From an uncultured Acidobacteriota bacterium (GTDB lineage Bacteria; Acidobacteriota; Thermoanaerobaculia; Multivoradales; SZUA-115): 64,000 bases of DNA. Where the stretch lies: the NCBI GenBank assembly GCA_963805975.1, contig CAWDVR010000003.1, positions 352,001 to 416,000 of the forward strand, in the 5' to 3' direction. The position numbers were made by a program, and so were the translations under genes. Below the pieces are notes generated by a model that saw only the letters and a program-made list of their open reading frames with translations, searched no databases and was not told the origin of the DNA. The stretch's first letter is position 1. Each line of letters starts with the position of its first letter. Positions 31,322-61,631 of this stretch are shown here, in pieces.

Positions 31322-33070
31322 ATGCTCCATGCTCCGCCATGCTCCACGCCGCATTCTCGAAGCCGGCGCGCTCGCGCCCCGCTCCTCGCCCTCCTCGCCG
31401 TGCTCTGGTGCGCCAGCCCGGCCCAGGCTGCGATCTTCACCGTGGGGGGCGTCGGCTGCACCCACGCCGACCTCTTCTCGGCCCTGGTGGCGGCGATCAA
31501 CGCCGCCGGCGCCGACGAGATCCGCCTGCTCGCCAACACCACCCACCAGGGGCAGTTCGTGGTCAACAGCGGCGACGGCCTGTCGATCCGCGGCGGCTTC
31601 GCGGGCTGCGCCGCCAGCGCCCCCACCGGTATGTCGACGCTCAAGGGCGACAACTCCAACCGCGCCCTCTTTCTCATCGCCAACACCTTCACACTGCTCG
31701 AGCGACTCACCATCAACGGCGGCTCGGTGACCGGCAATGGCGGCGGCCTGTTCGTGCAGGGTGGCGCGCGGGTCGACCTGTCGCTGGTCCATGTGGTCGG
31801 CAACAGCGCCACCGGCAAAGGCGGCAACGTCTACGTCAGCGCCTCACCGGGGCTCGAAGTGCGCTTTCTGACCGGTTCGCTCGTCAGCGCCGGCCAGGCC
31901 CCGGACGGCGGTGGCATCGCCTGCTCCGGGGCTGGCGGCGTGTTGCTGCACTTCGACGCGACGGTGATCAACAACACGGCCACGAACAACGGCGGCGGCG
32001 TGTGGGCCGGGGGCGACTGCGTGCTGTTCTCGAACGCCGGCGGCACGGTGGGCGGCATTCGCACCAATCTCAGCGTCAACAACGGTGGCGGGGTGTACGT
32101 AGAGGGCAGCGCCGAGTTCAATACCGGTCTCGCCGAGAGCGGCCCCACCATCATCGACGGCAACACCGCCAACAACGGCGGCGGCGGCGTGTTCGTCACC
32201 GGCACCGGCTCGGTGATCCGCCTGTTTTCGGCCAGGACCTCGTTCAATCACGCCGCTGGGGCAGGAGGCGCGTTTTTCGCCGACGATCACGCCGTGGCGG
32301 TGGTGGCCCGCCCGGTCAGCGACCCCGACCCCTGTCCGGACCCGATGCGTTGCTCGTTGCTGTTCGCCAACAGTGCCTCGGTGGGTGGCGCCATCTACAG
32401 CGACGACCAGGCCCAGGTGAACGTCCACGGCACTACTATCGAGAGCAACAGCTCCACCGTGTTCAATCCAGTGGCGAGCGTGCGGGGCGGCTCGCTGGTC
32501 ACCATCCACTCGAGCGTCGTCGCCGGCAACAGCGGCTCCGAGCCCTTCCTGGTTTCCGACGCCGCGAGCTCGCTGGTGCTCGGCAACGTCACGGTGGCCA
32601 ACAACATCAACATCGGCGACGGGATGATCGAGGTGGTCACCGGCACGGTGGGGCCGGTGCGCGTCCTGACCAGCGTCTTCCAGCAGGCCGGTCCGCTCTT
32701 CGTGCCGGGTTTCCCCGCCGCGATCACTCCGCAGGTCGATTGTGTGATGAGCTCGAACGGGGGCCTCTTCATCGGCATGCCCGCCGGCACGGTGATCCGC
32801 TCGATCGTCGTCGCCGATCCGCAGCTCGCCAACCCGGCGGCCGGCAACTTCCAACTGCGCGGCACCTCGCCGGCGATCGACGCCTGCGACACCACGCAAT
32901 GGAACGGCGGCTCCCAGGACATCGACTGGCAGGCCCGGGACATCGACAACCCCGACCACTCGAACCCCCTGCCGGGCTTCCGCGACCTAGGTGCCGACGA
33001 GTATCTGTGGATCTTCGCCGACGGCTTCGAGTCCGGAAACACCAATCGCTGGGATGTGGTGGTGCAGTAG
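31322..33070 (+). CDS. Secreted beta-helix protein (Pmp-like GGG/GGA repeats, choice-of-anchor Q-like end) with FxDGFE tail
   Basis: Signal peptide, repeated N.A...GGG(V/I), SPAIDAC...DLGADE, tail IFADGFESGNTNRWDVVVQ. Confidence 0.85.
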   Translation: MLHAPPCSTPHSRSRRARAPLLALLAVLWCASPAQAAIFTVGGVGCTHADLFSALVAAINAAGADEIRLLANTTHQGQFVVNSGDGLSIRGGFAGCAASAPTGMSTLKGDNSNRALFLIANTFTLLERLTINGGSVTGNGGGLFVQGGARVDLSLVHVVGNSATGKGGNVYVSASPGLEVRFLTGSLVSAGQAPDGGGIACSGAGGVLLHFDATVINNTATNNGGGVWAGGDCVLFSNAGGTVGGIRTNLSVNNGGGVYVEGSAEFNTGLAESGPTIIDGNTANNGGGGVFVTGTGSVIRLFSARTSFNHAAGAGGAFFADDHAVAVVARPVSDPDPCPDPMRCSLLFANSASVGGAIYSDDQAQVNVHGTTIESNSSTVFNPVASVRGGSLVTIHSSVVAGNSGSEPFLVSDAASSLVLGNVTVANNINIGDGMIEVVTGTVGPVRVLTSVFQQAGPLFVPGFPAAITPQVDCVMSSNGGLFIGMPAGTVIRSIVVADPQLANPAAGNFQLRGTSPAIDACDTTQWNGGSQDIDWQARDIDNPDHSNPLPGFRDLGADEYLWIFADGFESGNTNRWDVVVQ

Positions 33071-33110
33071 GGGGGCAGAGGGCGTCCGCTCCAGGCGGCT
33101 GGTATCCGGA

Positions 33111-33136
33111 TGGACCCCCGCTTTCGCGGGGGTGAC
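33111..33136. repeat. REP-like palindrome TGGACCCCCGCTTTCGCGGGGGTGAC between convergent genes
   Basis: ACCCCCGC-TTTC-GCGGGGGT stem-loop with TGGA/TGAC flanks. Confidence 0.7.
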
Positions 33137-33168
33137 GACGGGAGAGGTGCGCAGGCGCCGCCCGGCGT

Positions 33169-35613
33169 TCAATCCTCCTTCAGCGCCACCACCGGATCGA
33201 CCTGGGCCGCCTTGACAGAGGGCGCCAGGCAGGCGACGAGGCCGACCGCGGCCAGGAGGAGCGAGGCGGCCGCGAAGATGCCGGGGTCCGAGGGCTGGAC
33301 CTCGTAGAGCAGGCTCGCCAGCAGCCGGTTGGCGGCGAAGGCGCCGGCCACGCCCAGCACCATGCCGGCGAGGATCAGCCGCCCGCCTTGCCAGAGCACC
33401 AGGCTGGCGACGCTGCCGGGCGCCGCGCCCAGGGCCGAGCGGATGCCGATCTCCCGCGTGCGCAGGCTGACGGCGTAGGCGATGACGCCGTAGATCCCCA
33501 CCGCCGAGAGCAGCAGCGCCACGCCGGCGAAGATCGCCAGCAGCAGCATCGGCGCTCGCCGGGTGGCGAGCGAGTCGGAGAGCCGCGTCGCCATGGTCTT
33601 GACATCGAAGAGCGGCAGCTCCGGGTCGAGGCGCAGGATCTCCCGGCGGATGCCGCCGGTGAGGAGCGCCGGATCGCCCGAGGTGCGCGCCACCAGCGCG
33701 AGCTGGCCGGCCGGCCGCTGGCGCAGCGGGAAGTAGACCGTGCCTACCGTGTCGGGGTCGGTCAGATCCATCGAGCGGATGGCGGAGACCACGCCGACGA
33801 TGGTCCTCCAGGGCCGGTCCTCGTTGTCCTGTGCGATGCCGGTGCGCAGTCGCCCGCCGAGAGCGTCGCCCTTGGGGAAATAGCGCTCGGCGAGCTGCTG
33901 GTCGATGATCGCCACCAACTGCGCGTCCGGGGTGTCCGTGGCTTCGAAGTTGCGGCCGGCGATCTTGCGGATGCCGAGCGTGTCGAAGAAGCCGGCATCG
34001 ACCTCGCTGAAGTGCGGCACCGGCGGTGTCTCGCCCGGGCCCGGCGTGTAGCTCTCGAATGAGATCGCGCTGGCGTTGCTGCTGTTGCTGAAGGGGAGGA
34101 AGGTGGTGAGGCCCACCGCCTCGACCCCCGGCAGCGAGCGCACGCGGGCGGAGGCTGAATCGATGAAGGCCACGGTCGCGGCGTCGTCCGCGTAGCGCGC
34201 CTCGGGCAGGTTGATGAGCGCCGAGAGCACGCCCCGCGACTCGAACCCCGGCGTCACCCCCGCGACCTTGCGGAAGGACATCAGGAGCAGGCTCGCCAGC
34301 ACCAGCAGCACGAAGGCGAACGAGAACTGGAGCACCACCAGGCTCGAGCGGGTGAGCGAGGCCGTGCGGCCCCCGGTGCCCGTGCGCCCGCCCTCGCGGA
34401 ATGCCTGGGCGGGGTTCGCCCGCAGGGCCTGGAAGACGGGGATCAGGCCGAAGAGCAGGCCGGTGCCGAGCGCCACCAGGAAAGTGAAGGCGAGCACGCT
34501 CCAGTCGATCGCGATGTCCGACCCGCGGGGGAGCTGCTCGGCCGCGAAACGCGCCAGGAGGCGCGAGGCCGCCCAGCCCACCGCCAGCCCGAGCGCCCCG
34601 CCGGCGCCGGCCAGCGCCAGGCTCTCGACCAGCAGGGCACGCGTCACCCGGCCCCGGCCGGCGCCCAGCGCGAAGCGCACGGCGAGCTCTTTCCGCCGCC
34701 GGTGCGCCCGCACCAGCATCAGGTTGGCGACGTTGACGCAGCCGATGGCGAGCACCAGTGCCACGCCGCCCTGCACCAGCACGAGCTGCGGGCGCACGCT
34801 GCGCACCGTCTCCTCGTGCAGGCTGATCACCCGCGTCCAGAAGCCGGCGCTCGCCAGCACCTCGCGGAACTGCGGATGGGCGTCGGTGATGCGCTGGTTC
34901 AGGGCGTTGATGCGTTCCTGCGCCCGGGCCACGGTCACCCCCGGCTGGAGGCGGGCCAGCATGTTGAACGAGTTGCTGTGCCGGGAGTCGTCCGACATCT
35001 GCTCGGGCGTGAAGGCGAAGGGCATCAAGAGCCGGATGTCGTCATCCACGAGCTCGAAATCGTGCGACATCACGCCCACGATCTGGTGGCTCACGCCGTT
35101 GATCCGGATGTCCTTGCCCACCACGTTCGGGTCGCCGGCGAACTGCTTCTGCCACAGCGTGTGGGTGAGGAGGGCCACCTTCTCGTTGCCGAGCTTGGCG
35201 TCCTCCTCGGTGAAGGGGCGGCCGAGCACCGGCTGCACGCGCAGGAGGGGGAAGAGGGTGGGAGTGACGCGGGCCGAGACCACCCGTTCCGGCGAGCCCT
35301 CGGCGCCGACGTTGGCGCTCGAGAAATCGAGCAGCGCCACACTCTCGAAGACCTCGGTCTCCGCCTTGCGGTCGAAGTAGTCGGGTGCGGCGTTGGCGCC
35401 GCGGTCCGTCACGCCGACCTTGGGGTAGAGGTTGTAGAGGGTCACCAGGCGGTCGGGATCGGCATAGGGCAGCGGTTCGAGCAGCACCGCGTTGATGACG
35501 CTGAAGATGGCGGTGTTGGCGCCGATGGCGAGCGCCAGGGTGAGGAGCACGACGAAGGTGAACGACCGCTCGCGGGCTAGGGCGGCGACGGCGTGTTTCA
35601 GGTCTTTCAGCAT
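33169..35613 (-). CDS. ADOP-type duplicated MacB/FtsX ABC permease (complete)
   Basis: TLALAIGANTAIFSV, CVNVANL...ELAVRFALGAGR, EIGIRSALGA, VDPVVALKED. Confidence 0.93.
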   Translation of the reverse strand: MLKDLKHAVAALARERSFTFVVLLTLALAIGANTAIFSVINAVLLEPLPYADPDRLVTLYNLYPKVGVTDRGANAAPDYFDRKAETEVFESVALLDFSSANVGAEGSPERVVSARVTPTLFPLLRVQPVLGRPFTEEDAKLGNEKVALLTHTLWQKQFAGDPNVVGKDIRINGVSHQIVGVMSHDFELVDDDIRLLMPFAFTPEQMSDDSRHSNSFNMLARLQPGVTVARAQERINALNQRITDAHPQFREVLASAGFWTRVISLHEETVRSVRPQLVLVQGGVALVLAIGCVNVANLMLVRAHRRRKELAVRFALGAGRGRVTRALLVESLALAGAGGALGLAVGWAASRLLARFAAEQLPRGSDIAIDWSVLAFTFLVALGTGLLFGLIPVFQALRANPAQAFREGGRTGTGGRTASLTRSSLVVLQFSFAFVLLVLASLLLMSFRKVAGVTPGFESRGVLSALINLPEARYADDAATVAFIDSASARVRSLPGVEAVGLTTFLPFSNSSNASAISFESYTPGPGETPPVPHFSEVDAGFFDTLGIRKIAGRNFEATDTPDAQLVAIIDQQLAERYFPKGDALGGRLRTGIAQDNEDRPWRTIVGVVSAIRSMDLTDPDTVGTVYFPLRQRPAGQLALVARTSGDPALLTGGIRREILRLDPELPLFDVKTMATRLSDSLATRRAPMLLLAIFAGVALLLSAVGIYGVIAYAVSLRTREIGIRSALGAAPGSVASLVLWQGGRLILAGMVLGVAGAFAANRLLASLLYEVQPSDPGIFAAASLLLAAVGLVACLAPSVKAAQVDPVVALKED

Positions 35614-35650
35614 GGGGTGGCTCCCGGCCGCGGAGGGCCTGTCCCCTTCT

Positions 35651-35679
35651 GAAACGTGGCCGGCCCGCCCTTTGTTGCA
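35651..35679 (-). promoter_or_regulatory. Putative ECF-sigma promoter TGCAAC-N17-CGTTTC
   Basis: AAC/CGT architecture 38 nt upstream of the permease ATG. Confidence 0.4.
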
Positions 35680-35719
35680 GGGCCGGCCTGCTAAGCTCGC
35701 CCAAACCCCGAGACCTGCC

Positions 35720-36661
35720 GTGCGCCGACCGCGAATCCCCAGATCGTCGCTACCGGGCGACTCCCCACAGATCAGGCGGCGGCAGCGCCTGGCGGGGATC
35801 GGCTGCATGGGCCTCTTCCTCCTGGGGGTGTTTGCGGTCGAGAAGGGGAAAGAGCTCTTCCGGGACACTCCCCTCGCTCCCGACTCGCGGGGGATGGAGG
35901 AGATCCTCCAGGACGACGACCTCGAGGCGCTCGAGAAGCGGCTCAGCAACGGTGCCGACCCCAACGCCAAGGACGTCTTCGACCAGGCGTTGATCACCTG
36001 GGTGAGGAGCCCCAAGGCCCTGGAGATCATGCTCCGCCACGGCGCCGACCCGCAGGGCCGCGACAAGGACGGCGACACGCCGCTGATGGAGGCGGCGCGG
36101 GCGGGAGACGTGGAGTCGGTCCGGGTGCTGCTCGCCGCCGGAGCCGATGTCAACGCCGTCAACCCCGAGTACGGCTCCGAGCACACGGCGATGATCGACG
36201 CCATCTCGGGCGGCGACGGGGAGGTTCTCCGTCTTTTCAAGGCGGCCGGAGCCGTGGACACGCGGGTCACCGCCGAGAACGGCCAGCCCCTGCCGGCGGA
36301 CGGCGGCGAGCCGTTCCGGGTCTGCGTGGAATACATCGCCGCCATCCATCGCCAGGACCCGGACGCGATGTATCCGCTCACCGTCTGGCCCGAGCCCATC
36401 GATTCCTCCGGGACCGACTGGAACACGCTCCAGAGCGTGCGCCCCGTTGCGCCTCGCTTCCTCGGCGGCTTCTTCAACGAGACCTACGCCACGCTCACAC
36501 TCTCCGGCGAGACCCCGGCCGGTTTCGAGGCGGAGTGGCGGTACCAGCTCCGCCGCCTCCGCGCCGAGCAGGAGCCTCTGCTGCCCGAAGGCAAGACCCG
36601 GATCGAACCGCACACCACCGGCCTGTGGCGCATCGTGCGGGAGGACTGGCTGGTGGATTGA
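35720..36661 (+). CDS. Membrane-anchored ankyrin-repeat protein (start uncertain)
   Basis: GADPNAKD, GDTPLMEAARAG...LLAAGADVN; N-terminal hydrophobic stretch. Confidence 0.8.
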   Translation: MRRPRIPRSSLPGDSPQIRRRQRLAGIGCMGLFLLGVFAVEKGKELFRDTPLAPDSRGMEEILQDDDLEALEKRLSNGADPNAKDVFDQALITWVRSPKALEIMLRHGADPQGRDKDGDTPLMEAARAGDVESVRVLLAAGADVNAVNPEYGSEHTAMIDAISGGDGEVLRLFKAAGAVDTRVTAENGQPLPADGGEPFRVCVEYIAAIHRQDPDAMYPLTVWPEPIDSSGTDWNTLQSVRPVAPRFLGGFFNETYATLTLSGETPAGFEAEWRYQLRRLRAEQEPLLPEGKTRIEPHTTGLWRIVREDWLVD

Positions 36662-36698
36662 GAGACACGAGCATGTTCCCCGGCTCTCGCCATCCCCT

Positions 36699-37955
36699 CT
36701 AGACCAACAGCCGCTCCAGCGGCACCGCCCAGATGTTTCTCTCTAGCTGCTGGATGCTGGGTCCGGTATAGACCACGATCCCTCCGCGCCACTGCTCCCC
36801 GAGCGCTTTGCCGACTTCTCTCATGCTTCTCCAGCCCGAAGGCGAGAGCTTGGCGCCCAGCTTGGCCTCGAAGGTCCACGTTCCGTAAGGAGTGGTGGCC
36901 ATTAGATCGACCTCCAAGCCCGAGCGTGTGCGGTAGAAGGCGAGATCGACCGGCAGGTCGTGAGTCTTCGCCCACTTGAAGACCTCAGTGACGACCAGCG
37001 TCTCGAAGAGCTGCCCGGTGGCCGGTCCGCGGTTGTGGGTCAGGTGGCGCCACAGGGCCGTGTCCAGCCAGAAGATCTTGGGCGTCTTGATCACGCTGCT
37101 GGTGAGATTCTTGGCATAGGGCGGCAGGAGCACCGCCTGGTAGGAGAGCCGCAGGTACTCGATGTAACGCCTCGCCGTGGTGACGCTCAGGCCGGAGTCG
37201 CGGGCCAGTTCCGAGAACGACAGTAACTGGCCGCTGCGTGCCGCGCCGAGCTGCTGGAAGCCTCGGAAGGGCAGCAGGTCGGAGAGCCGAGTCAGGTCGG
37301 CGAGGTCACGCTCCAGGTAGGTGGCGTCGTACGACTGGAGCCACTTGCTGCGTTCCTCGTCGGAGAGCGGAAGGAGGCCCGGCATCCCTCCCCAGGCCAA
37401 CAAATGCTCGATCGCATCGGCGGCCCGCTCCGCCAGGGGACCCAGGCGCACCTCCGGCTCCTTGCCGAGGTGTTCCTCCGCGGAGCCGGGCTCGCGCAAC
37501 AGGCGGTCCAAGAGTGGCTGCGGCGCCTCCGAGCCGGCCTCAGTGGCGAGCTCGCTCGCCAGAAGCGGCCAGAGCTCGTAGACGAAGGCCCGGCCGGCCA
37601 GGGTCTCGCGCACCCTCTGCAGCATCAGGATCTGCGACGAGCCCAGGAGGATCGTCTCCCTGATCTCGCCGGCATCGAAGGCGTACTTCACCTTGTCGAA
37701 GAGGCTGGGCTCTTTCTGGGCTTCGTCCAGGATCGCGGGGCCGATGGCCTCGGCCCAGGACTCTGCTCGCGCGACTCGGAGAGTCTCACGCTGCGCTGGC
37801 GAATCCAGGTTGACGTAGCGGAAGCCGGGGAAGACGGCCCGCGCAAGAGTCGTCTTCCCCGTCTGACGGGCGCCGGTCAGGAGGGTCAGCCGGGGTGGCG
37901 AAACACGCTGGAGAACTGGCCCCAGCCAACGGAAACGCTGTATATTCGTTCTCAT
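36699..37955 (-). CDS. AAA_14 ATPase with DUF4143 domain
   Basis: TGARQTGKTT, LDEAQK, ETLAGR, GGMP, KTPK.F.LDT, YRTRSGLEVD...EAK. Confidence 0.93.
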   Translation of the reverse strand: MRTNIQRFRWLGPVLQRVSPPRLTLLTGARQTGKTTLARAVFPGFRYVNLDSPAQRETLRVARAESWAEAIGPAILDEAQKEPSLFDKVKYAFDAGEIRETILLGSSQILMLQRVRETLAGRAFVYELWPLLASELATEAGSEAPQPLLDRLLREPGSAEEHLGKEPEVRLGPLAERAADAIEHLLAWGGMPGLLPLSDEERSKWLQSYDATYLERDLADLTRLSDLLPFRGFQQLGAARSGQLLSFSELARDSGLSVTTARRYIEYLRLSYQAVLLPPYAKNLTSSVIKTPKIFWLDTALWRHLTHNRGPATGQLFETLVVTEVFKWAKTHDLPVDLAFYRTRSGLEVDLMATTPYGTWTFEAKLGAKLSPSGWRSMREVGKALGEQWRGGIVVYTGPSIQQLERNIWAVPLERLLV

Positions 37956-38028
37956 GGTGGGTAAATATACAGCCTATTTGTCCACGTCGTGAACAGATTT
38001 ACAGGTTATTTAGGCTCTCCGGGGAGAC

Positions 38029-39006
38029 TCAGCGCGTCCCGACCGGCCCCATCCACCGCCCGAGCACCGGCAGGTCACGAAGGGCCTGGCGCCACTCCGG
38101 TGCTGGTGGGCTGAAGGGCGAGGGCAGGAAGAACAGGGCGAGCCAGAGGGGGTTCTGGGGGAACCCGACTCCCATCGTCAGGTGGGTGGAGACGTGCAGG
38201 AGGATGAGGCCGAGGCCCCAGGCCCGGTGCAGCGAGGGCCGAGCCGCCGCCCACAGCGCGAAGAGCTCCAGGTAGAGAGCGCCGATCATCAATGGCCAGC
38301 CCACCCAGTAGTGCTCGATCAGCCACAGGCCGAGGACGCTCGTGGAATCGTCCGAGAGAAGCTTGGCGGCGACCTGCCGCGCGAGCGCCGTGGGCGCGAC
38401 GTAGGAGACCTCACCCTGGAGCGCCTGCTGGACCACCCCGCCCACTTTCCACACGCCGGACATACTGTACGTGAGCATGATGAGCGCCTGACAGCCGGAG
38501 AACACCAGCAGGGTCGCAGCTCGCACCGGCCGGCCGGGCGCCGGGCTCGACGCCCAGCCGCGGGGAAGGAAGATCAGCACGAAGCTCAACAGCAGGCCCA
38601 GGTGGTCGCCGTGATTGACGCTGCCGAAGGAGAACCGGAAGGCCAGGAGCTCGAGCAGCGAGCAGAACACCAGGATGCGTGCCCATCGGTGGCCGGAGAG
38701 CGCCACCCCGAGCAGGCCGCCCAGCAGGTGGAACCACAGAATCAGCGCGATCCCGGAGCGAAGGTCCACGTAGCGCAGCCAGAAGACGGGCCAGCGAGGG
38801 CTGAGACTCGTGGTGGCGAGGAGCTCCTGCCAGGAGAAGAGCTGGTTCAGAGCGAGAAACAGCAGCACCGCGTAGAACGCCGTAACCAGGGCCTGGCCAC
38901 GGAAGAAGCTCTCCCGGCGCAAGAAGACGGACCCGCTCGTGGCTGGGCCGGCGGCCCGCGACCGGAAGAAGGCCACGAGGGCCTCAGCGCGGCCCCTATC
39001 TCTCAT
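38029..39006 (-). CDS. HTTM-like polytopic membrane protein
   Basis: SFGSVNH, YSMSGVWK, LELF...R...GLILLH...MG.GF pattern; about 7-8 TM. Confidence 0.6.
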   Translation of the reverse strand: MRDRGRAEALVAFFRSRAAGPATSGSVFLRRESFFRGQALVTAFYAVLLFLALNQLFSWQELLATTSLSPRWPVFWLRYVDLRSGIALILWFHLLGGLLGVALSGHRWARILVFCSLLELLAFRFSFGSVNHGDHLGLLLSFVLIFLPRGWASSPAPGRPVRAATLLVFSGCQALIMLTYSMSGVWKVGGVVQQALQGEVSYVAPTALARQVAAKLLSDDSTSVLGLWLIEHYWVGWPLMIGALYLELFALWAAARPSLHRAWGLGLILLHVSTHLTMGVGFPQNPLWLALFFLPSPFSPPAPEWRQALRDLPVLGRWMGPVGTR

Positions 39007-39494
39007 TTGGGGCTCTCATTCGGGTCTCGCGTGTCGAGCCGCACGACGAGGCGCCGCTCACTGCTCTCGCCGGTCTGCCACTTGTGGAGCGGCTCGTAGC
39101 GCTCGAAGAGGAGGTCATAGCGCACCTTGCCCTGGAGGTAGTTGTCCTCCAGGACCTGACGCAGGTGATCGGCCTCCTCGGTCCTACCCTTGTCGTGCGC
39201 CCGCCCGAGGCTCTGGATCAGCTTGCGCCCGAGGAAGCGGTTTCCGGTCACGATCGATCCCGGCGCCTGGAAGAAGGAGACGGGCGGCCGGAGCAGTTGC
39301 CCCTCGTGCCGATGGATGACCACCGTGTACCGGCTCTCCAGGTTCGGGACCTTCGAGAAGAGGGACCAGCCGAAGAACGGGAAGATCTCGTCCACCCCGG
39401 GTACGAGCTTCTGGCTCGCCGCCCCGGCGACGCAGTACACGGCGACGAGCAGCACGAGCTGCCGGCGCAGGCGGCGCAGAGGGGTCGCGTGCAT
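39003..39494 (-). CDS. Small membrane-anchored partner of the HTTM-like gene
   Basis: One TM, then DEIFPFFGWSLFSKVP; ATGA overlap with the downstream gene. Confidence 0.6.
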   Translation of the reverse strand: MHATPLRRLRRQLVLLVAVYCVAGAASQKLVPGVDEIFPFFGWSLFSKVPNLESRYTVVIHRHEGQLLRPPVSFFQAPGSIVTGNRFLGRKLIQSLGRAHDKGRTEEADHLRQVLEDNYLQGKVRYDLLFERYEPLHKWQTGESSERRLVVRLDTRDPNESPK

Positions 39495-39610
39495 CGTCCT
39501 GTTGTTCAGGGTCTCAGGCTACCATCGTGCAACGCTGGAAAGGCCCTCGAGGCACCCGTCGGATAAGCTCCGAGCCCGATGCTCAGGCCCCCGTGCAAGG
39601 CTGTTCGGCC

Positions 39611-41404: not shown

Positions 41405-41456
41405 TCTACTATCGTGGGTCTGGCAGCCTGGATCGACCCATGAAAGGCGGGAAGCG

Positions 41457-42937: not shown

Positions 42938-42963
42938 GCTTCCATGGTTGCAAGGAGCCACGG

Positions 42964-44658
<1,695 letters not shown>

Positions 44659-44668
44659 GGCGATCGGC

Positions 44669-47558: not shown

Positions 47559-47728
47559 GAGATCTCTCCCTCGTGGCGATGCGTTCACCTGAGTCAGACG
47601 CGCAACGTCACTCGTCCGGCCTACTCGCTGTGACGTATCTCATAGCGGGCTTGCTGGGTGGGTGCTTTGCTGCAATTCGAGCGTCCCGGCCTGGCCGACC
47701 TGCGCCCACAACACCGAGGAGAAGCACG

Positions 47729-49270
47729 ATGCCCCCTGCCCGCTACGCCTGCCGCTTCGCTTCCACCGCCCTACTTCTGAGTCTCGGGCTCGCCTCGCCG
47801 GCCGCTGCCGGCACGCTCGCCGTAACCTCCACCACCCCGGCACGGAACGCCGGCAACGTCACCACTTCGACCACCATCGTCGTCCACTTCAACATGGCCC
47901 TGCAGACCGCTTCGATCACCTCCTCGAGCTTCCGCGCCTGGGGCAAGTGGAGCGGTCCCAGAACCGGCGCCTTCGCCTTCTCGAACGGCAACCAGACGCT
48001 GACTTTCACCCCCAGCCGCCCGTTCTCGGCCGGTGAGGCGGTGTACTTCCTGCTCGCCAACACCGTCACCGCCGCCGACAGCTCGCCATTCCGGGCCGGC
48101 GGCTACGCCTCGCAGTTCACCACCGCGGTCGTCGTGACGCCGGCCGACTTCCAGGAGATCGACACCATCTCGGTGCGCACCACTCCCGGAGAAGGTACGC
48201 GCCTCTATGGCGGCAGCGGCGCCGACCTCGACAACGACGGCTGGCTCGACTACGTGGGCGCCAACGAGGACAGCGGCGACCTCCGGGTGCTGATGAACCG
48301 CGACGACGGCAGCGGGCTCTACCACCCCTTCCTGCAGCCCCCCACCGAGACCGACCTGGGCCCCAGCCCGAACGAGGTCGCCGACTACGACAACGACGGT
48401 TTCCAGGACGTGGCGACGGCCAACTACATCCCCTCGACGGTCTCCGTGGTCCTGGGCGACGGCGACGGCACCTTCAGCCTCCAGCAGTCGGTGTCGGTGG
48501 CCAATACCCCGCACGGCCTCGCCACCCTGGACGTGGACGGCGACGGCGACCTCGACCTCGTCACCGCCAACGAGGCCGCCAACAACCTGTCGCGGCTGCT
48601 CAACAACGGCAGCGGCGTGTTCGGAGCCGCGACCCACTTCGAGGGGGGCGGCGACGGCGAGTACGCGCTCACCGCCGGCGACATGAACAACGACGGCATC
48701 ATGGACCTGGTGCTCGGCACCCGCGACGACCAGCAGATCCACGTCCTGACCGGCAACGGCAACGGCACCTTCTCCCATGCCTCGAACCGCTCGGCGGGCG
48801 GCCTCACCTGGATGGTCGCGGTAGGCGACGTCAACGGCGACGGCCACCTGGACGTGGCCTCCGCCAACAGCCAGAGCAACAACGGCTCGATCCTGCTGGG
48901 CAACGGTAACGGCACCTTGCAGGCGGCGGCGACGATCGCGACCTCCGGCCACATGGTGGCGACGGACCTGGGCGATCTCGACGGCGACGGCGATCTCGAC
49001 TGGGTGCTGTCGTCGTTCGGCGGTGGGCGCTGGCACGTCTACACCAACAACGGCGCCGGCGCCTTCACGCAGGTGGACGAGATCTTCGCCACCAGCAACG
49101 CCTCCTGCGCCACCCTCTACGACTTCGACAACGACGGCGACCTCGACATGGCGCTGGCCGACGAGATTGCGGACGAGGTCAAGCTGATCCAGAACAGCGG
49201 TGGCCCCGGCCTCTTTGCCGACGGCTTCGAGACCGGCGACACCGCGGCCTGGTCACTCACTGTGCCGTAG
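47729..49270 (+). CDS. Secreted Ig-like + FG-GAP/VCBS repeat protein with FxDGFE tail
   Basis: VTSTTPA...IVVHFN...LTFTP Ig module; seven DxD/NxDGxxD repeats; tail LFADGFETGDTAAWSLTVP. Confidence 0.9.
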   Translation: MPPARYACRFASTALLLSLGLASPAAAGTLAVTSTTPARNAGNVTTSTTIVVHFNMALQTASITSSSFRAWGKWSGPRTGAFAFSNGNQTLTFTPSRPFSAGEAVYFLLANTVTAADSSPFRAGGYASQFTTAVVVTPADFQEIDTISVRTTPGEGTRLYGGSGADLDNDGWLDYVGANEDSGDLRVLMNRDDGSGLYHPFLQPPTETDLGPSPNEVADYDNDGFQDVATANYIPSTVSVVLGDGDGTFSLQQSVSVANTPHGLATLDVDGDGDLDLVTANEAANNLSRLLNNGSGVFGAATHFEGGGDGEYALTAGDMNNDGIMDLVLGTRDDQQIHVLTGNGNGTFSHASNRSAGGLTWMVAVGDVNGDGHLDVASANSQSNNGSILLGNGNGTLQAAATIATSGHMVATDLGDLDGDGDLDWVLSSFGGGRWHVYTNNGAGAFTQVDEIFATSNASCATLYDFDNDGDLDMALADEIADEVKLIQNSGGPGLFADGFETGDTAAWSLTVP

Positions 49271-51539: not shown

Positions 51540-51594
51540 TCAGGGTGAGGCTGGGCCTCACCCCGGTTGGACGGACGCGGCAGCGGAGTTTCTC

Positions 51595-52887: not shown

Positions 52888-53038
52888 AAGAATGCCCCCC
52901 GTTCGAGTAACTTGAAAGTATCCGCTCTTAGGCTAGTGCAGGAGCGTCTATTTCGCAACCAAGTGGAGTTTCTGTGAGATCCCCTAGCTACCCACGACGA
53001 GGTAAAGTTGCTCTCTGTCCCTACTCTTGGAGAACCTG

Positions 53039-55282: not shown

Positions 55283-55298
55283 CTCGGAGGATTCGACG

Positions 55299-56186
55299 AT
55301 GAGCCTGTCCACTCTGGCCCGCAAGCCCGGCGAGCGGTTCGACCTTGCCGAGATCGATCCCCGCTCGACGCCGGGCATCCGGGGCAAGGCGGCCGCGGAG
55401 CAGGAGAGAGCGCGCCTGCTCGAGCGGCTGACGCTCCTTCAGCAGCGGCTCTACGCCGGGGGCGAGCACGCCTTGCTGGTGGTGCTCCAGGGCATGGACG
55501 CGAGCGGCAAGGACGGCGTCATCCGCCACCTGGGCGGCGCCTTCGGCCCGCAGGGAACCGTGGTCACGGCGTTCAAGGTGCCGACGCCCGAGGAGCTGTC
55601 CCACGACTTCCTGTGGCGGGTTCACCGGGCGGTGCCGGGCAAGGGCAAGATCGGGATCTTCAACCGCTCGCAGTACGAGGACGTGGGCGTGGTGCGGGTC
55701 AAGAACCTGGTGCCCGAGGCGGTGTGGGGCAAGCGCTACGACGCGATCAATCGCTTCGAGCGCCTGTTGGCCGACAACGCGGTCACGATCGTCAAGCTCT
55801 TCCTCCACATCAGCCCCCAGGAGCAGGCCGAGCGCCAGCGCGACCGTCAGCGGGACCCGGAGGAGCGCTGGAAGTTCAATCCCGACGACCTCGGCGACCG
55901 CAAGCTGTGGCCGGAGTTCATGGCGGCGTACGGCGAGGCGCTGACCCGCTGCAACACCGCCTGGGCGCCGTGGCACGTGATCCCCGCCGATCGCAAGTGG
56001 TACCGCAACTGGGCGATCTCCCAGCTTCTGGTCGCGACCCTGGAGGACCTGAAGCTCGACTACCCGCCGGCGCCGGACGACATCGAGAGCCACGAGATCC
56101 CCGAGGTCAAGTGGCCTCCTCGCCGCCGCGCACCCAAGCGGGCACCGGCCGCTTCTCGAAGCGGTCGAGGTCGAGGCAAACGGTGA
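55299..56186 (+). CDS. ppk2: Polyphosphate kinase 2 family protein
   Basis: QGMDASGKDG, FKVPT.EE..HDFLWR, FNRSQYEDV, WKF, PADRKWYRN. Confidence 0.95.
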   Translation: MSLSTLARKPGERFDLAEIDPRSTPGIRGKAAAEQERARLLERLTLLQQRLYAGGEHALLVVLQGMDASGKDGVIRHLGGAFGPQGTVVTAFKVPTPEELSHDFLWRVHRAVPGKGKIGIFNRSQYEDVGVVRVKNLVPEAVWGKRYDAINRFERLLADNAVTIVKLFLHISPQEQAERQRDRQRDPEERWKFNPDDLGDRKLWPEFMAAYGEALTRCNTAWAPWHVIPADRKWYRNWAISQLLVATLEDLKLDYPPAPDDIESHEIPEVKWPPRRRAPKRAPAASRSGRGRGKR

Positions 56187-56514
56187 CCACCCGTGCCCCG
56201 GCGACCGGCTCCTCCTCGCCGCGCTTGAAGAAGGTGAAGCGGAAAGTGAGCGACGAGGCGCCGACGCTTTCGATGACGACCTCGATCTCGATCGCGTCGC
56301 CGTAGCGCAGGGGGCGGCGGAAGTCGACCTCGACCCGGACGGCCGGGAAGCCCAGCCGTTCCTCGGCCAGGAGCCGCGGGTACGGCACCCCCAGCGCCCC
56401 GGCGAAGAACTCCTCCATCGCCACGTGGCAGTAGTGCAGATACCGCGGGTAGTAGACGATCCCCGCGGAGTCCACGTCGCCGAAGCACAGGGTGTGGTGC
56501 GAGCGGAAGGGCAC
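56107..56514 (-). CDS. Acyl-CoA thioesterase (4-HBT hot-dog fold)
   Basis: FGDVDSAGIVYYPRY, VDFRRPLRYGD. Confidence 0.92.
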   Translation of the reverse strand: MPFRSHHTLCFGDVDSAGIVYYPRYLHYCHVAMEEFFAGALGVPYPRLLAEERLGFPAVRVEVDFRRPLRYGDAIEIEVVIESVGASSLTFRFTFFKRGEEEPVAGARVVTVCLDLDRFEKRPVPAWVRGGEEAT

Positions 56515-56519
56515 GGAGA

Positions 56520-57416
56520 TCAGCCGTCGAGCCGGCGCCGGCTCTCGATCTCGATTCGTTCACCGCTCACCGGGTCGCGGAAGGCGAGGCACCGGGCGAG
56601 GAGGAGGAGCGGCTTGGCGAAGTCCGGCGGCGCCTCGGGCGCGAGATCAGGGTAGTAGCGATCGCCCTCGATGGGGAAGCCCAGCCCGGCCATGTGCAGC
56701 CGGAGCTGGTGCTTCTTGCCGGTCGCGGGCCGGAGGCGGAAGAGGCCGCGGCCCGCGCGCCACTCGAGGAGCGCGATCTGCGTCCTGGCGTTGGACGGAC
56801 CCGGCTCCTCGCGCATGCGAAACCAGGGCTCACCGGCCACCAGCCGGTTCTCGACCCACCACTCCTCGGCCTCCGGTCGCTCGGCGACCCGCGCCACCGC
56901 GAGGTACTCCTTCTCGACCTCGCCGCGCTCGAACAGGCCCTGGTAGAGGCCGCGGGCCTCCTGTCGCTTGGTGAAGAGCACCAGGCCGGAGGTGTCGCGG
57001 TCCAGGCGATGGGCCGGTGCCAGGGTGGCGCAGCCGTTCGCCTGCTGGAGACGGAAGAGCAGGCACTCGTTGACGTAGGGGCCGGCGGGCACCACGGGAA
57101 GAAACGGCGGCTTGTCGGCGACCAGGAAGTCGTCCGTTTCGAGCAGCACCTCGGCGGTGAACGGCACCGGCGGCTCGGCCTCCACCTCACGGAAGTAGGC
57201 GAGGCAAAGGCCGGGCGGGAGCGGCGTCTCCAAACCCACCGCCTCCCCGTCCGCGGCGCGCACCCGGCCGGCCTCGATGCGCTGGCGCCAGCTCTCTCGC
57301 CCGATCCGTGGAAAGCGGGCGGCGAGGAAGTCGAGGGCACGAGGTGGCGGCGTGCCCGGCGCCCCCGGCACGGTGACGAACGAGGGCCGGGGCGCCCGGC
57401 TCCGTGTCCGGCTCAG
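56520..57416 (-). CDS. RluA-family pseudouridine synthase (start uncertain: CTG 57416 or GTG 57371)
   Basis: DKPPFLP, HRLDRDTSG, KEY.A, TGKKHQLRLH, GDRYY. Confidence 0.92.
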   Translation of the reverse strand: MSRTRSRAPRPSFVTVPGAPGTPPPRALDFLAARFPRIGRESWRQRIEAGRVRAADGEAVGLETPLPPGLCLAYFREVEAEPPVPFTAEVLLETDDFLVADKPPFLPVVPAGPYVNECLLFRLQQANGCATLAPAHRLDRDTSGLVLFTKRQEARGLYQGLFERGEVEKEYLAVARVAERPEAEEWWVENRLVAGEPWFRMREEPGPSNARTQIALLEWRAGRGLFRLRPATGKKHQLRLHMAGLGFPIEGDRYYPDLAPEAPPDFAKPLLLLARCLAFRDPVSGERIEIESRRRLDG

Positions 57417-57979
57417 GCCGCCGGCCACAGCCAACCGAAGATCCCCGCCATCAGGAGCCCGTACACTATGCCGTCGAAGATCTCCTTCAGGATGCTCGAC
57501 CAGCTCCGGCCGAACCAGATCGCGAAGGTCGGCAGCGCCCCGGCCCAGGCGAGAATGCCGGCCGTGCCCACCACCTGGAAGACCCGCAGGTACTCGGCGC
57601 CGGCGGGCACGGTGCGGCTCGCCAGGTAGGCGACGAGGAGCGAGACGATGCCGCAGTGCAGGAGGTAGAGCACCATGCTCTGGCCCATGTTGGCGCCGCC
57701 GGCCGGGAAGAGCACCAGCATGCCGGCGGGCCCTTCCTTCATCTTGCGCTGGATCTCCGGGTCCTTCATCGACTTGGAGTCTGCGCAATGGGGGAACGTG
57801 AACTGCCCGGGCCGCGAAGCGTTCTGCTGCTTCAGCTGGGCGATGAGGGCGTCCTCGTTGGGCAGCTTCTTCCAGTCGGGACGATGGTGCGGGAGCACCA
57901 TCCAGAACACGAAGCCGGCGAACCACAGGACCACGGCGGAGACGACGATCGGCAACCACAGAGCGGACAAAGAGACCAT
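57413..57979 (-). CDS. Hypothetical 4-TM membrane protein
   Basis: SD AAGGAGG, hydrophobic segments, typical GC3 bias. Confidence 0.8.
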   Translation of the reverse strand: MVSLSALWLPIVVSAVVLWFAGFVFWMVLPHHRPDWKKLPNEDALIAQLKQQNASRPGQFTFPHCADSKSMKDPEIQRKMKEGPAGMLVLFPAGGANMGQSMVLYLLHCGIVSLLVAYLASRTVPAGAEYLRVFQVVGTAGILAWAGALPTFAIWFGRSWSSILKEIFDGIVYGLLMAGIFGWLWPAA

Positions 57980-58222
57980 GAGTCCCTCCTTCGGGTGGAA
58001 GCTTCCCCGGCGTTGCCGGGAAAGGCCGTTGACCAGGCTTGAGGCTGGCAGGATCCTAGCCCGTTTTCGCCATCGCGTGGCGCCGGTCACGCTCCCGCCT
58101 CCCGCTTCCCGGGTGACGCCGGCGCCACACGGCGCTGCTGGGGGTCTTCCTTTTCACCGGCTGGAGCAAGGTCACGGGGTCGTTGCTATCGTTGCGGGTC
58201 TACCGCAGCCGGATCTGACCCG

Positions 58223-58476
58223 ATGCCACTCTCCGCCGCCGATCTCGACCACCTCCTCGCCGCCGCCCTCGCTGCTGCGCGGCGGGCCGGCGCCATCCAG
58301 CGCCAGTATTTCCGCGCGCCTGGCCTCACGGTGGAGCACAAGGCCGACACCTCGCCGGTGACGGTGGCGGACCGACGGAGCGAGGAGGCGATCCGCGAGA
58401 CGCTCCGCCGCGCCACGCCCGAGCTCGGCCTCTGTGGCGAGGAGCACCCGCCCGAGAGCGACGCGCGCGACCGCTG
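58223..58476 (+). pseudogene. 5' fragment of an inositol monophosphatase / HisN-like gene
   Basis: K.D.SPVT.AD..SE..IR...GEE; homology ends just before the expected W..DPIDGT motif. Confidence 0.85.
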
Positions 58477-58784
58477 TGGTCCGCATCGCGCCCGGTGGGG
58501 TATTTCATGAAGAGATCGGACTTCGAGACCGCCCATGTCTCGGGATTCACCTCCTGGCCGAAGAGGTGGATCTCGGCGCCGCTGTTGAGGACGGGCCGCA
58601 GCAGATCGCCGTTCTTCCTCAAGCCGGCGGTGATGTGCTCCTTGGCGATCATCAGCATGCCGCCGGAGCCGCAGCACGGGTGATACACCGTGAAGACGGC
58701 GCCACGGCGGCGCATGCGCTCATCGGCCCCTGCGAGCATCAGGTCCACCATCAGGTGAACGACGTCACGCAGCGTGAAGTGCTC
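58476..58784 (-). pseudogene. hsdM: Internal fragment of a type I restriction-modification methyltransferase
   Basis: EHFTLRDVVHLM...VYHPCCGSGGML...FGQEVNPETWAVSK; no start codon, degenerate motifs. Confidence 0.88.
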
Positions 58785-59761
58785 TCGAGGGCCGCCGTGG
58801 CGAACCGCCGCACGATCTCGCCGGCGGGCTCGATCGCGTGGATGCCTGCGACGCTCTTGCCGGCTTGGAGGTAGTCCCGGTAGGAGAACTTGCGGCGCAG
58901 CGACTTCTTGAGCTTCCAGAAGGATTGCAGCGTGTAGAAGGTGCGCATCCAGTGCTTGGTGCGCCGGCCCTTGAGCAGGAAGCGGCCGAGGGGCCCGGCC
59001 TTGGTGCCCGCCTGCTCGATGTAGGGCGTGCGGATCACGGACACGGGAACGCCGGTCATGCGCTCGGTGAGCACGATGTCCTCCTCGCCGGCGGCGAGGA
59101 TCGCCTGCTTGTAGTCCTCGTGCGCCGAGCACTCGGTGGTGGCGATGAAGCGGGTGCCCATCTGCACGCCGGCATATCCCATCTGGAGCGCGCGGACGAA
59201 GTCCTCCTCGGTGCCGATGCCGCCGGCGCACACCACCGGCACGCCCAGGGGCTCGAGCTCCGCCAGCAGGACCTCGGCGCTCCGCGGCCCGGCGTGGCCC
59301 CCGGCGCGGTTGTTGACGGCGATCAGGCCGTCCGCGCCCTCGACCAGGCCCTTCTCCGCCCACTTGCGCTCGGTGACGTCGTGGAACACCAGGCCGCCTG
59401 CGGCGTGGGCCTTCTCGACCACCCAGCGCGGGTTGCCGAGCGAGGTGATGAAGAAGCGCACGCCCTCCTCGATCGCCAGGTCCACGTAGTGCTGCATGCG
59501 CTCCTGGTAGACCTTGGACGACTTCTCGACGATCACGTTCATGCCCACCGGCTTCGAAGTACGGCGGCGGATCTCGGCCATGCCCTCCTTGAAGTCCCAG
59601 CCGTGCACGTAGACCAGCGACAGGGGTTGCACCACGCCGATCCCCCCGGCTTCGGACGCGGCGGCCACCAGTTCGGGGTTCGAGGCCGGGTACATGGGGC
59701 CGCAGATGAGCGGCACCTCGATGCCGAGCTTCTCGGTCAGGGGTGTCTCTAGGAGCGACAT
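58751..59761 (-). CDS. Nitronate monooxygenase / FabK-like flavoenzyme
   Basis: AAASEAGGIG, AGGHAG, AGGIG, GVQMGTRFIAT.E, QAGKSV. Confidence 0.92.
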   Translation of the reverse strand: MSLLETPLTEKLGIEVPLICGPMYPASNPELVAAASEAGGIGVVQPLSLVYVHGWDFKEGMAEIRRRTSKPVGMNVIVEKSSKVYQERMQHYVDLAIEEGVRFFITSLGNPRWVVEKAHAAGGLVFHDVTERKWAEKGLVEGADGLIAVNNRAGGHAGPRSAEVLLAELEPLGVPVVCAGGIGTEEDFVRALQMGYAGVQMGTRFIATTECSAHEDYKQAILAAGEEDIVLTERMTGVPVSVIRTPYIEQAGTKAGPLGRFLLKGRRTKHWMRTFYTLQSFWKLKKSLRRKFSYRDYLQAGKSVAGIHAIEPAGEIVRRFATAALESTSRCVTSFT

Positions 59762-59831
59762 GAAGGAGGGCAGAGCTCGCGGACGGTGGCTCATTCTATG
59801 CCACCCGGGAACTGATACCCTGCCTGCCCGC

Positions 59832-60890
59832 ATGCTCCCGCAAGGCCGATCCCGCTGGCTCGTCCTCCTACCCGGCCTCGGTGCCGCGCTCGCCGTGGCG
59901 CTCGCCGCGCGCCTCGTCCACGGCCTGCTGCCGGCGGCGCTCGCCGCACCGCTGGGCGAGGTGGTGCTGGCGGTGCTCCTGGGGCTCGTCGCGGGCAACC
60001 TGCTGCCGCTGCCGGCCGCGCTCGAGCCCGGCCTGCGCTTCGGATTCGGCACGGTGCTGCGCCTGGCCATCGTGCTCCTGGGGGCGCGGCTCTCGTTCCT
60101 CACCGTGGTGGCGATCGGCGGCAAGGCGCTCGCGATGATCGCCGTGCTGATGACCCTGGCGCTGGTACTGGCGCACCACGTGGGGCGCCTCCTGGGGGTG
60201 GCGCCCAGGCTGGCCGCGCTGATCGGCGTCGGCACGGCGGTGTGCGGCAACACGGCGATCTCCGCCACCGCGCCGGTGATCGAGGCGCGGGACGAGGAGG
60301 TGTCCTTCGCCATCGCCACCAACACGCTCCTGGGCACGCTGGCGGTGTTCTGCTATCCGCTCCTGGGCCGCGCCCTGGGCTTCTCGGATGCGGCCTACGG
60401 CACCTGGGCGGGCCTGGCGGTCAACGACACCTCGCAGGTGGTGGCGGCGGGCTTCGCCTTCAGCACGGCGGCGGGGGAGGTGGCGACCGCGGTGAAGCTC
60501 ACCCGCAACGCCCTGATGGGAGTCGTGATCGTGCTCATGGGCTTCCTCTACGGGCCACGCGAGGGCGCCGGCCCTGCTGTGAGCTTCGGCGCGCGGCTCC
60601 GCCAGTCCGTGCCAGTCTTCGTCTACGGCTTCCTGGGCATGGCCCTGCTGAATACGCTGGGAGCATTCGACGCCGCCTCGACGGTGCTCCGCTTCGACCT
60701 CTCGGCCGCGCTCGCGGCGTGCGCCCGGTTCCTGATCCTGGTCGCGCTGGCCGCAGTGGGGCTCGCCACCCGCCTCGCCGCCCTGCGGCGGACCGGCGTC
60801 CGGCCCTTCTACCTGGGCTTGATGGTGGCCGCCGCCACCTCGGCCACGAGCCTGCTGCTGATCCGCTGGCTCGGCCCGGCGGGCGGGTAG
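59832..60890 (+). CDS. YeiH / putative sulfate exporter family membrane protein
   Basis: LRLAIVLLG, GTAVCGNTAI.A.AP, DTSQV, VKLTRN. Confidence 0.92.
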   Translation: MLPQGRSRWLVLLPGLGAALAVALAARLVHGLLPAALAAPLGEVVLAVLLGLVAGNLLPLPAALEPGLRFGFGTVLRLAIVLLGARLSFLTVVAIGGKALAMIAVLMTLALVLAHHVGRLLGVAPRLAALIGVGTAVCGNTAISATAPVIEARDEEVSFAIATNTLLGTLAVFCYPLLGRALGFSDAAYGTWAGLAVNDTSQVVAAGFAFSTAAGEVATAVKLTRNALMGVVIVLMGFLYGPREGAGPAVSFGARLRQSVPVFVYGFLGMALLNTLGAFDAASTVLRFDLSAALAACARFLILVALAAVGLATRLAALRRTGVRPFYLGLMVAAATSATSLLLIRWLGPAGG

Positions 60891-60896
60891 AAGGCG

Positions 60897-61631
60897 CTAC
60901 GGCACCACGCTCGTCCACGCCGAGGTGTCCCCGCTCTCGAAGCCGTCGGTGAAGATCCCGAGACCGGTTGCGATGGCGAGGTTGTCCAGGCGCACGTCGT
61001 GGTCGGTGAAGCCGAAGACGAAGCCGGGCTCGAGGGTGGTGTAGGCCACCTCGTCGATGCCGGCGAGGACGCTCGCGAAGGTGCGGTCCGGCGGCAGGAT
61101 CGGGTTGGCGCCCGCATCCTCGGCGCCGTAGCCGCGCCAGCCGGGCGGCAGGGCCGCGGCCCCGGTGTCGAAGATGGTGACCGACAGCCGGGTCCAGGTG
61201 CCGTGCTCGGCCGCCGAGACGTCGCCGAACTTGTACCAGACGGAGGTCCAGGGAAAGCCCTCTTCGGGGTCGTCGTAGTCGCGCAGCTCGATCAGCCAGG
61301 GGCGTGACACGGGCGAGCCGAAGAAGCTGATCGCGTCCACCTTCAGGTCGTGCGCGAGCCGCACCGAGCCGACCGTGGTGTAGTCGAAGACGAAGGCGGC
61401 GTTGGTGTCGTTCGCGAAGGTGATGCCGAAGTCGTTGAACACGGTGTGGAGGTTGGCGCCGGGATTGCCGCCGGCCGGGTCGATGACCGTCGTGCCGCCC
61501 CCACCCTGCGGCCCCTGCCAGCCCTCCGGGCCGCTGTCGAAGGGGACGGTCGAGTCCGCGACGGCCGTGCCGGCCGGCAGACAGGCGAGGGCGAGAGCGA
61601 GGCCGATCGAAGTGGCGAGATCCCTCTTCAT
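60897..61631 (-). CDS. Secreted beta-sandwich-like protein with FxDGFE tail
   Basis: Signal peptide, PFDSGPEGW...GGNPG...RLDNLAI, tail IFTDGFESGDTSAWTSVVP. Confidence 0.85.
   Translation of the reverse strand: MKRDLATSIGLALALACLPAGTAVADSTVPFDSGPEGWQGPQGGGGTTVIDPAGGNPGANLHTVFNDFGITFANDTNAAFVFDYTTVGSVRLAHDLKVDAISFFGSPVSRPWLIELRDYDDPEEGFPWTSVWYKFGDVSAAEHGTWTRLSVTIFDTGAAALPPGWRGYGAEDAGANPILPPDRTFASVLAGIDEVAYTTLEPGFVFGFTDHDVRLDNLAIATGLGIFTDGFESGDTSAWTSVVP

Follow-up and report, generated by a model that had tools for sequence, protein, structure and literature searches.

A recurrent 19-residue C-terminal tail of apparently exported Acidobacteriota proteins matches the segment missing from a headless jelly-roll protein: a candidate split-domain display system

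Several described systems give unrelated proteins a shared C-terminal address or complete a protein fold in trans. In dockerin-cohesin systems, enzymes share a C-terminal module that docks in a calcium-dependent manner on a common, sometimes SLH-anchored scaffold, while chaperone-usher donor-strand exchange, the C-terminal domain of the type IX secretion system (T9SS) and engineered split tags such as SpyTag/SpyCatcher either complete a fold in trans or give proteins a common C-terminal label. Tripartite sorting signals (LPXTG, PEP-CTERM, GlyGly-CTERM, MYXO-CTERM) are likewise C-terminal, and exosortase genes are reported to be often located in polysaccharide loci (10.1101/2023.06.07.544157). 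The C-terminal tail of PilC/PilY1 is reported to dock on minor pilins by beta-strand augmentation (PMC13711793; PMC12918778). Here we describe a 19-residue tail with the core F-x-D-G-F-E, which occurs three times in a 64,000-nucleotide stretch of DNA from an uncultured Acidobacteriota bacterium (the window; contig CAWDVR010000003.1, positions 352,001 to 416,000), and a candidate partner gene of the same genome, located outside the window, which encodes a jelly-roll domain lacking the corresponding segment.

In the six frames of the window, F-x-D-G-F-E has three matches only, all of them C-terminal tails of 19 residues followed by a stop codon. A previous sequence-only reading of this DNA had described these tails, and its quoted translations proved exact at all three sites, which are also recovered by a tail hidden Markov model (HMM). 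Tail 1 (33011..33070, forward strand) closes a protein of about 582 aa (31322..33070) with a heuristically picked, signal-peptide-like start, tail 2 (49211..49270, forward strand) a 513-aa protein (47729..49270, with a possible alternative upstream start at 47573) and tail 3 (60897..60956, reverse strand) a 244-aa protein (60897..61631) whose homologues have varying ends. The Ig-like and FG-GAP body read in protein 2 was recovered as a Big_5 domain and an FG-GAP propeller; the beta-helix assigned to protein 1 corresponds to weak POMP and beta-helix repeat matches (E 0.005-0.05), and domain-library scans matched no family in protein 3, which begins with a segment resembling the tail-like head discussed below. 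All three proteins pass a signal-peptide heuristic, in line with the secretion claimed for them, the type of signal being the call of that heuristic.

The genome of the window (G000; 5.36 Mb, 96% complete, 4257 genes by our own gene call) was then searched for F-x-[DN]-G-F-E. Its six-frame segments contain 43 matches, 42 of which lie 17-23 residues from a stop, and 32 of the 43 have exactly the spacing seen in the window (binomial P for terminal clustering ~1e-71 against an expectation of 1.9%). The only internal match is in an open reading frame that looks TonB-dependent-receptor-like by eye and was taken as chance. The tail HMM scored at least 15.7 bits at 46 places, every one of them terminal, whereas the match ranked after these reached 10.0 bits. 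Of these, 43 are inside called genes and three in short or frameshifted frames (C1:769385-769807, C3:303651-303749 and C5:644425-644592), reflecting assembly error or decay; in the first, the signal-peptide-bearing body sits in another frame. Once the tail was removed, the 43 genes fell into 33 BLAST clusters, i.e. unrelated bodies, and F, F, E and W are invariant in 32/32 aligned tail rows. The tail is a real feature, far beyond chance, and what the sequence-only reading had anticipated, namely many more copies genome-wide, enrichment at C-termini and unrelated bodies, was borne out. Pfam names 28 of the 39 tail proteins scanned: five subtilases, a carboxypeptidase, trypsin, nucleases, FG-GAP propellers, GSDH, cytochrome c peroxidase, DUF11, PKD, DUF1501 and others, a set including proteases, nucleases and adhesin-like proteins. 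Signal-peptide-like starts, called by heuristic and not by SignalP, were detected in 35/43 tail proteins against 951/2173 of the background in a permissive start search, and in 23/43 against 847/3891 with fixed starts; one or two cargo have Tat-like starts. In several cargo, MAM-type domains stand directly before the tail, and the MAM domains of this genome open with a segment similar to it. Four tails (L009, L012, L032, L034) carry a Cys-x-G-(x)-x-Cys-Pro-Pro extension, 22-23 residues counted from the motif, and are likely a disulfide-looped subtype.

The tail is not covered by any Pfam or NCBIfam family (for 32 tails, the best E values were 0.1 and 0.055, respectively). The tails end in V-P, V-Q or V-E with no basic cluster, and no hydrophobic transmembrane (TM) helix follows the motif, after which 12 residues remain in the standard form; the proposal of a portable tag devoid of both elements is supported. 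The tail shares with the tripartite signals its C-terminal position, its many copies per genome, a short invariant motif in which at least three residues hardly vary (F, F, E and W) and the presence on unrelated signal-peptide-bearing bodies, and in homologues it is interchangeable with PEP-CTERM and IPTL-CTERM. It differs in having neither hydrophobic helix nor basic cluster, and its candidate partner is a soluble fold fragment rather than an intramembrane protease. For window protein 3, we classified the ends of the best 120 of 311 homologues: this tail closes 18 of them, PEP/IPTL-like helices close 17, dockerin-like repeats 46, and the other 39 have different ends, the classes being assigned by patterns that missed some members of the first three, now among the 39; database labels on these homologues include PF07589, PF18203 and PF00404. 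Another cargo of the genome scores 469 bits against TIGR04312, above cut-off, as a choice-of-anchor B protein. By sequence comparison, the tail is portable and exchangeable with known anchors in cargo homologues. A DNA scan of species genomes gave at least 133 terminal tail loci, 132 of these 133 ending in a stop, and among 80 titles listed for tail loci 70 are Acidobacteriota, mostly with Thermoanaerobaculia or Holophagae labels, a group in which G000 presumably falls. The G000 proteome also holds four IPTL-CTERM-like proteins, with no PEP-CTERM match by pattern, and a tripartite system coexists there with the tail.

In order to find a partner, we used a pattern for the last strand of the jelly roll on the small proteins of G000 with a hydrophobic start. 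One of the six candidates was fitting: the gene at C6:244914-245555 (forward strand; L037:10001-10642), which encodes 213 aa consisting of a predicted signal peptide and a domain devoid of the tail-like head (the headless domain; the protein is hereafter called the adaptor). Its mature part comprises 189 residues (L037:10073-10639). The gene is single-copy by phmmer and profile search, its product belongs to no Pfam or NCBIfam family and has 14 K/R and 18 D/E, and on its two sides stand a sigma-70-like site and a terminator-like hairpin, both consensus matches only. In RNA (one run, 0.06 share), a 742-nt contig with 34 differences covers the gene; as its start lies upstream of the predicted promoter, as it could derive from DNA and as it was retrieved with this very stretch, expression level was not judged from it. 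Two other candidates were rejected. The LamG proteins of G000 (PF13385, 2 matches) are not headless partners, and a 440-aa putative surface protein is class-wide, in 128/161 genomes, with no tail-following pattern. The two copies of the latter (C1:950947-952269, L285; C5:536639-537961, L286) are 97% identical to each other, have signal-peptide-like starts and no Pfam family, rank 2 and 3 of 3441 by codon index and belong to a family with 8 matches in G000, possibly an S-layer or other major surface protein.

The adaptor profile has 3081 representative matches, and the best 150 of these contain 281 domain copies. A tail-like head opens 214 copies; 26 have a degenerate or unrecognised head, 11 are cut at the start and 30 were flagged as signal peptide without head, one of which was a misfiled fragment, leaving 29 headless single-domain proteins with a signal-peptide-like start. 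Of the 153 canonically spaced heads, 110 stop one residue ahead of the first column of the headless profile. In profile comparisons, the tail aligns to positions 1-19 of the intact domain (prob 97.1, E 6e-11) and the headless protein to what is left of it (prob 100, E 1e-43); compared with each other, the tail and headless profiles do not match (prob 0.4). Since the start of the intact domain was set at the head by hand, the contiguity of the two pieces, and not the start position, is the result. On these alignments, the tail is equivalent to positions 1-19 and the adaptor to the rest of one intact jelly-roll domain, and the split is contiguous. Tail position 11 is Thr in 89/132 tails, whereas 130/153 intact heads have Leu or Phe there, and 111/132 tails have a terminal Pro; these tail-specific residues, unlike those of intact heads, argue against simple truncation.

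As for the origin of the split, one genome (G127) has a headless gene immediately after a tail gene and, in addition, an intact domain that bears a similar insertion. In a small protein of another class (G177), a single chain unites signal peptide, head and adaptor-like domain. In a quick-method tree with corrected labels, 41 stand-alone headless proteins and the G177 protein, on a long branch, form one group (SH-aLRT 99), with the SLH-fused, dockerin-fused and insertion-type headless forms outside it; change counts on the tree were not used because the automatic labels were wrong for 10 intact or truncated rows. From these sequences, more than one split is possible.

The model of the headless protein (pLDDT 95) is a concanavalin-like jelly roll, whose residues 1-189 align to residues 21-228 of the glucuronan lyase 2ZZJ of polysaccharide lyase family 20 (PL20) (Z 15.5, root-mean-square deviation (rmsd) 2.6, 175 aligned). 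The model of an intact natural domain (pLDDT 93.9), with head strands at 3-5 and 16-19, aligns to residues 2-228 of the same structure (Z 20.2, rmsd 2.4, 193 aligned) and to residues 1-212 of Cip1 (Z 19.0). As the headless protein starts at 2ZZJ residue 21 and the intact domain at residue 2, the missing piece is 19 residues. The predicted models, with their shifted chain ranges, match a PL20/Cip1 fold with the tail as N-terminal segment, 2ZZJ and Cip1 (3ZYP) being the nearest solved folds at 11-16% identity. The sequence-only reading had likened the tail to the first strand and calcium-binding loop of MAM/cleaved-adhesin beta-sandwiches. The MAM domains of G000 do open similarly, but both profile and model alignments place the closest intact parent among PL20/Cip1-like jelly rolls; a profile of four G000 MAM domains did not match the adaptor at E up to 10, nor has the adaptor a MAM match in Pfam. 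Of 30 members, 5 match PF14099 with E values no higher than 0.1, the lowest being 2e-5; the score of the first member is 14.2, where the cut-off is 29.9.

The calcium ligands of Cip1 are Glu7, Ser37 and Asp206 plus main-chain oxygens of Asp5, Ser37 and Asn40 (PMC3764139). Counted from the ends of the aligned ranges, and assuming gap-free terminal strands, Asp5, Glu7 and Asp206 map to Gly5 and Glu7 of the tail and Asp183 of the adaptor. Asp183 is invariant in 68/68 headless sequences, Arg189 is found in 99%, and the conserved headless columns cluster at both chain ends. By this mapping, the predicted calcium site is split, part on the tail and part on the adaptor. PL20 2ZZJ and Cip1 3ZYP share with the predicted pair the jelly-roll fold and a structural calcium bridging N- and C-terminal segments (PMC3764139), but there the fold is a single chain, whereas here it is split over two genes with no sign of conserved catalytic residues.

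The distribution of tail and headless gene was compared in a class sample of 161 genomes, with the terminal position of every hit checked only in G000 and the low-count genomes. The tail profile matched 25/161 genomes and the domain profile 24/161. Signal peptide plus headless domain was found in 19 of the 20 genomes with at least seven tail hits, the copy of G312 being frameshifted and that of G307 carrying an insertion, whereas none was found in G340. Of the five low-count genomes, three (G201, G216 and G127) combine a terminal tail with a headless gene; in G208 a single tail but no headless gene was found, and G295 has intact domains only. In all, the headless gene is present in 22/24 genomes with terminal tails versus 0/137 others, G023 entering these tallies as one counted row only, so that the profiling suggested by the sequence-only reading did yield a candidate partner. 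In an order sample of 121 genomes, overlapping the class sample, the domain is present in 60/62 genomes with at least 20 tail hits and in 2/37 without tail hits. The 26 best-scoring loci fetched from it, five of which repeat class-sample genomes, comprise 25 with signal peptide plus headless domain and one cut by a contig end. Tail and headless gene also appear together within the mixed families f5, f10 and f3 (2/24 for both in f5). In another genome, G344 (L207-L226), the tail profile has no fewer than 140 hits; there are two headless genes, and intact domains stand in tandem, two or three together, in many proteins. This genome shares contig coordinates with an order-sample genome, and neither it nor G346 was counted as spread outside the class.

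Taken with the contiguous split and the models, this distribution makes it likely that the tail docks to the headless adaptor, and the strand complementation that had been imagined has gained a concrete candidate partner lacking exactly the tail positions, with binding itself a prediction. Cargo and adaptor would exit the cytoplasm via Sec, apart from the one or two Tat-like cargo, and after export the tail would insert in the adaptor, completing its fold and the predicted calcium site. The two Phe and the Trp of the tail would fill the exposed core edge of the adaptor, the first tail strand would pair with the last adaptor strand, which bears the practically invariant Arg189, and tail Glu7 and adaptor Asp183 would bind Ca2+, in a 1:1, non-covalent docking with no cleavage.

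The adaptor would then be the shared holder of the cargo at the cell envelope; this retention, as a whole, we consider probable, if less firmly than docking. The holding itself is the least certain step, and would use an SLH domain where present and elsewhere the surface polysaccharide made by neighbouring genes. Four class-sample adaptors have an SLH-like repeat extension, with SLH above the Pfam cut-off in three, and one is fused to a dockerin; a similar extension of ~190 residues is seen at 8/26 order-sample loci, six judged by eye, and one SLH-fused adaptor adjoins a gene with a polysaccharide pyruvyl-transferase domain. At 14/17 scanned loci, the adaptor neighbours include glycosyltransferases, sulfatases, sulfotransferases or polysaccharide export genes, and in G000 the adaptor gene precedes those for an arylsulfotransferase, an ATP sulfurylase, a nucleotide-sugar dehydrogenase, a flippase, sulfotransferases and a Wzy_C protein. 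As the glycan changes, one locus-linked adaptor gene would fit every cargo to it. That the adaptor is anchored by glycan binding is put forward tentatively, at somewhat less than an even chance. With the same reserve, we propose a natural split-domain display in which a universal, calcium-locked 19-residue plug, borne by tens to more than 100 exported proteins per genome, would fit a single socket gene in a surface-polysaccharide locus. In G115, the gene upstream of the adaptor (L041:777-1427) has a product that by eye resembles a zinc-finger anti-sigma factor, contains a TM segment and closes with a tail-like motif; it has no Pfam match at 1e-5, and its product could sense free adaptor. In G252, an extracytoplasmic function (ECF) sigma factor gene lies two genes from the adaptor.

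A number of observations weigh against docking with retention at the envelope. Modelled by itself, the headless protein reaches pLDDT 95, and the model does not show a need for the tail. In G000, retention is left unexplained: its adaptor lacks a TM segment, a lipobox and SLH, and the called proteins of the genome yielded no SLH-like domain. The net charge of headless proteins runs from -13 to +4, neutral to acidic and unlike a sulfated-glycan binder; glycan genes are absent among the scanned neighbours at 3/17 loci, and no background rate stands behind the 14/17. The codon-index rank of the adaptor, 616/3441, is modest for a binder of 40 cargoes, in a genome where this index is weak, reference genes ranking from 4 to 2645. 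The domain was not found in tail-rich G340 (93% complete), G401 and G433 (91-93% complete), nor in G348 (29 hits, fragmented), G347 (8 hits, the listed ones on one contig) and G208 (one tail), where 'not found' is the meaning of these negatives since the large searches score limited candidates per genome. Finally, kin are not independent, so that co-occurrence overstates the association.

The tail could instead bind the adaptor as an export signal or chaperone step, for instance of a type II secretion system (T2SS), with cargo released afterwards. The T2SS-like operon of G000 on C5 (Pfam recognises GspF, GspE and secretin; in NCBIfam the top matches are to GspD, GspE and GspG, all below their cut-offs), the cargo of proteases, nucleases and adhesin-like proteins and the anchorless, modestly ranked adaptor would all fit this. 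However, the SLH and dockerin fusions suggest retention, no secretion gene was found among the scanned adaptor neighbours, and a fold completed around a shared calcium site would suggest slow release, so that we regard it as unlikely. A GspK profile gave weak matches in 103/161 genomes and missed G000 itself; it is uninformative, and the operon is not tied to the tail. The secretin of this operon (L283:10293-12806) has a C-terminal cohesin-like domain above the Pfam cut-off.

Decidedly improbable is that another receptor reads the tail, the headless gene being merely co-inherited. The six tail-bearing genomes with no domain match are in its favour, as is the fact that profiling covered the headless domain, one putative surface-protein family and GspK only; yet it leaves unexplained the contiguous split, the invariance of Asp183 in proteins without the other ligands and the joint presence in mixed families such as f5, and the 440-aa family used as a control is class-wide and does not show the pattern. 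Even less credit can be given to the idea that there is no partner in trans, the tails being what is left of truncated domains or folding back on the protein that carries them. Intact domain copies do end many cargo-like proteins in relatives, and the MAM-type domains before the tail in several cargo and the head-like start of window protein 3 make fold-back conceivable in those cargo. Against this stand the 33 unrelated bodies with a fixed tail length, the tail-specific Thr11 and terminal Pro, and the homologues with complete bodies and other anchors. A polysaccharide lyase rebuilt from tail and headless protein and switched on by cargo, e.g. to open a path through the capsule, would suit the nearest folds, which are lyases of anionic polysaccharides, the weak PF14099 matches and the polysaccharide-locus context, but such lyases generally need catalytic His/Tyr, and in 68 headless sequences no His or Tyr is conserved above 74% and the only basic residues above 80% are Arg45, Arg165 and the terminal Arg189; this reading is the least probable of all.

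Returning to docking on the adaptor, the closest parallels are with dockerin-cohesin, which has in common many cargo, a common partner, calcium (predicted here) and SLH on some adaptors, and there are homologues of window protein 3 that carry a dockerin instead of the tail. The tail differs in being a 19-residue piece of the fold of its own partner and not a folded domain, and the adaptor is single-site; no dockerin match was found in 32 tails, and the adaptor matches no Pfam family, cohesin included. PilC/PilY1 resembles the tail in a short conserved C-terminal segment that becomes a strand in its partner and links a passenger to a surface structure, but involves one adhesin family and a pilus, whereas dozens of unrelated cargo and a split lectin-fold domain are involved here. 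As compared to chaperone-usher systems, no polymer would form, the adaptor lacking a tail of its own; SpyTag/SpyCatcher differs from this natural, genome-wide system, which has no known isopeptide chemistry. No T9SS domain is found at the cargo C-terminus: the tail does not match a TIGR04183-type domain, and the one TIGR04183 hit among 39 cargo is internal. As is reported for exosortase genes in tripartite systems, the adaptor gene is often in polysaccharide loci (10.1101/2023.06.07.544157). By analogy, the tail would resemble dockerin-cohesin or strand-complementation display, while features that define tripartite signals, the T9SS domain and dockerins are missing from it. No description of the tail/adaptor system was found in the literature searched, Pfam or NCBIfam, with subscription papers and preprint supplements outside the search, and the protein-display system is apparently undescribed.

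Two further features of this genome concern other surface proteins. At 12024-15347 of the window (reverse strand), a protein of 1107 aa has an autotransporter-like layout, in which Ig-like domains are combined with a C-terminal region that weakly matches an outer-membrane beta-barrel. A second recurring C-terminal module, which ends in D-x-x-A-F-x-x-C-P and groups 19 proteins (e.g. C1:1493098-1494516, C2:79807-80823, C1:397167-398261), with signal-peptide-like starts in those seen, may be another undescribed anchor domain.

The tail can serve immediately as a marker of envelope proteins in these genomes. If the proposed display is true, it would be a sorting mode needing no protease, membrane helix or folded recognition domain, and it would explain the envelope retention of ~1% or more of the proteins in a widespread, mostly uncultured Acidobacteriota group; exchange of the single socket gene would then direct all surface proteins to a different glycan. 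If binding holds, tail and adaptor would also constitute a natural, sequence-diverse and calcium-dependent tag-and-catcher family.

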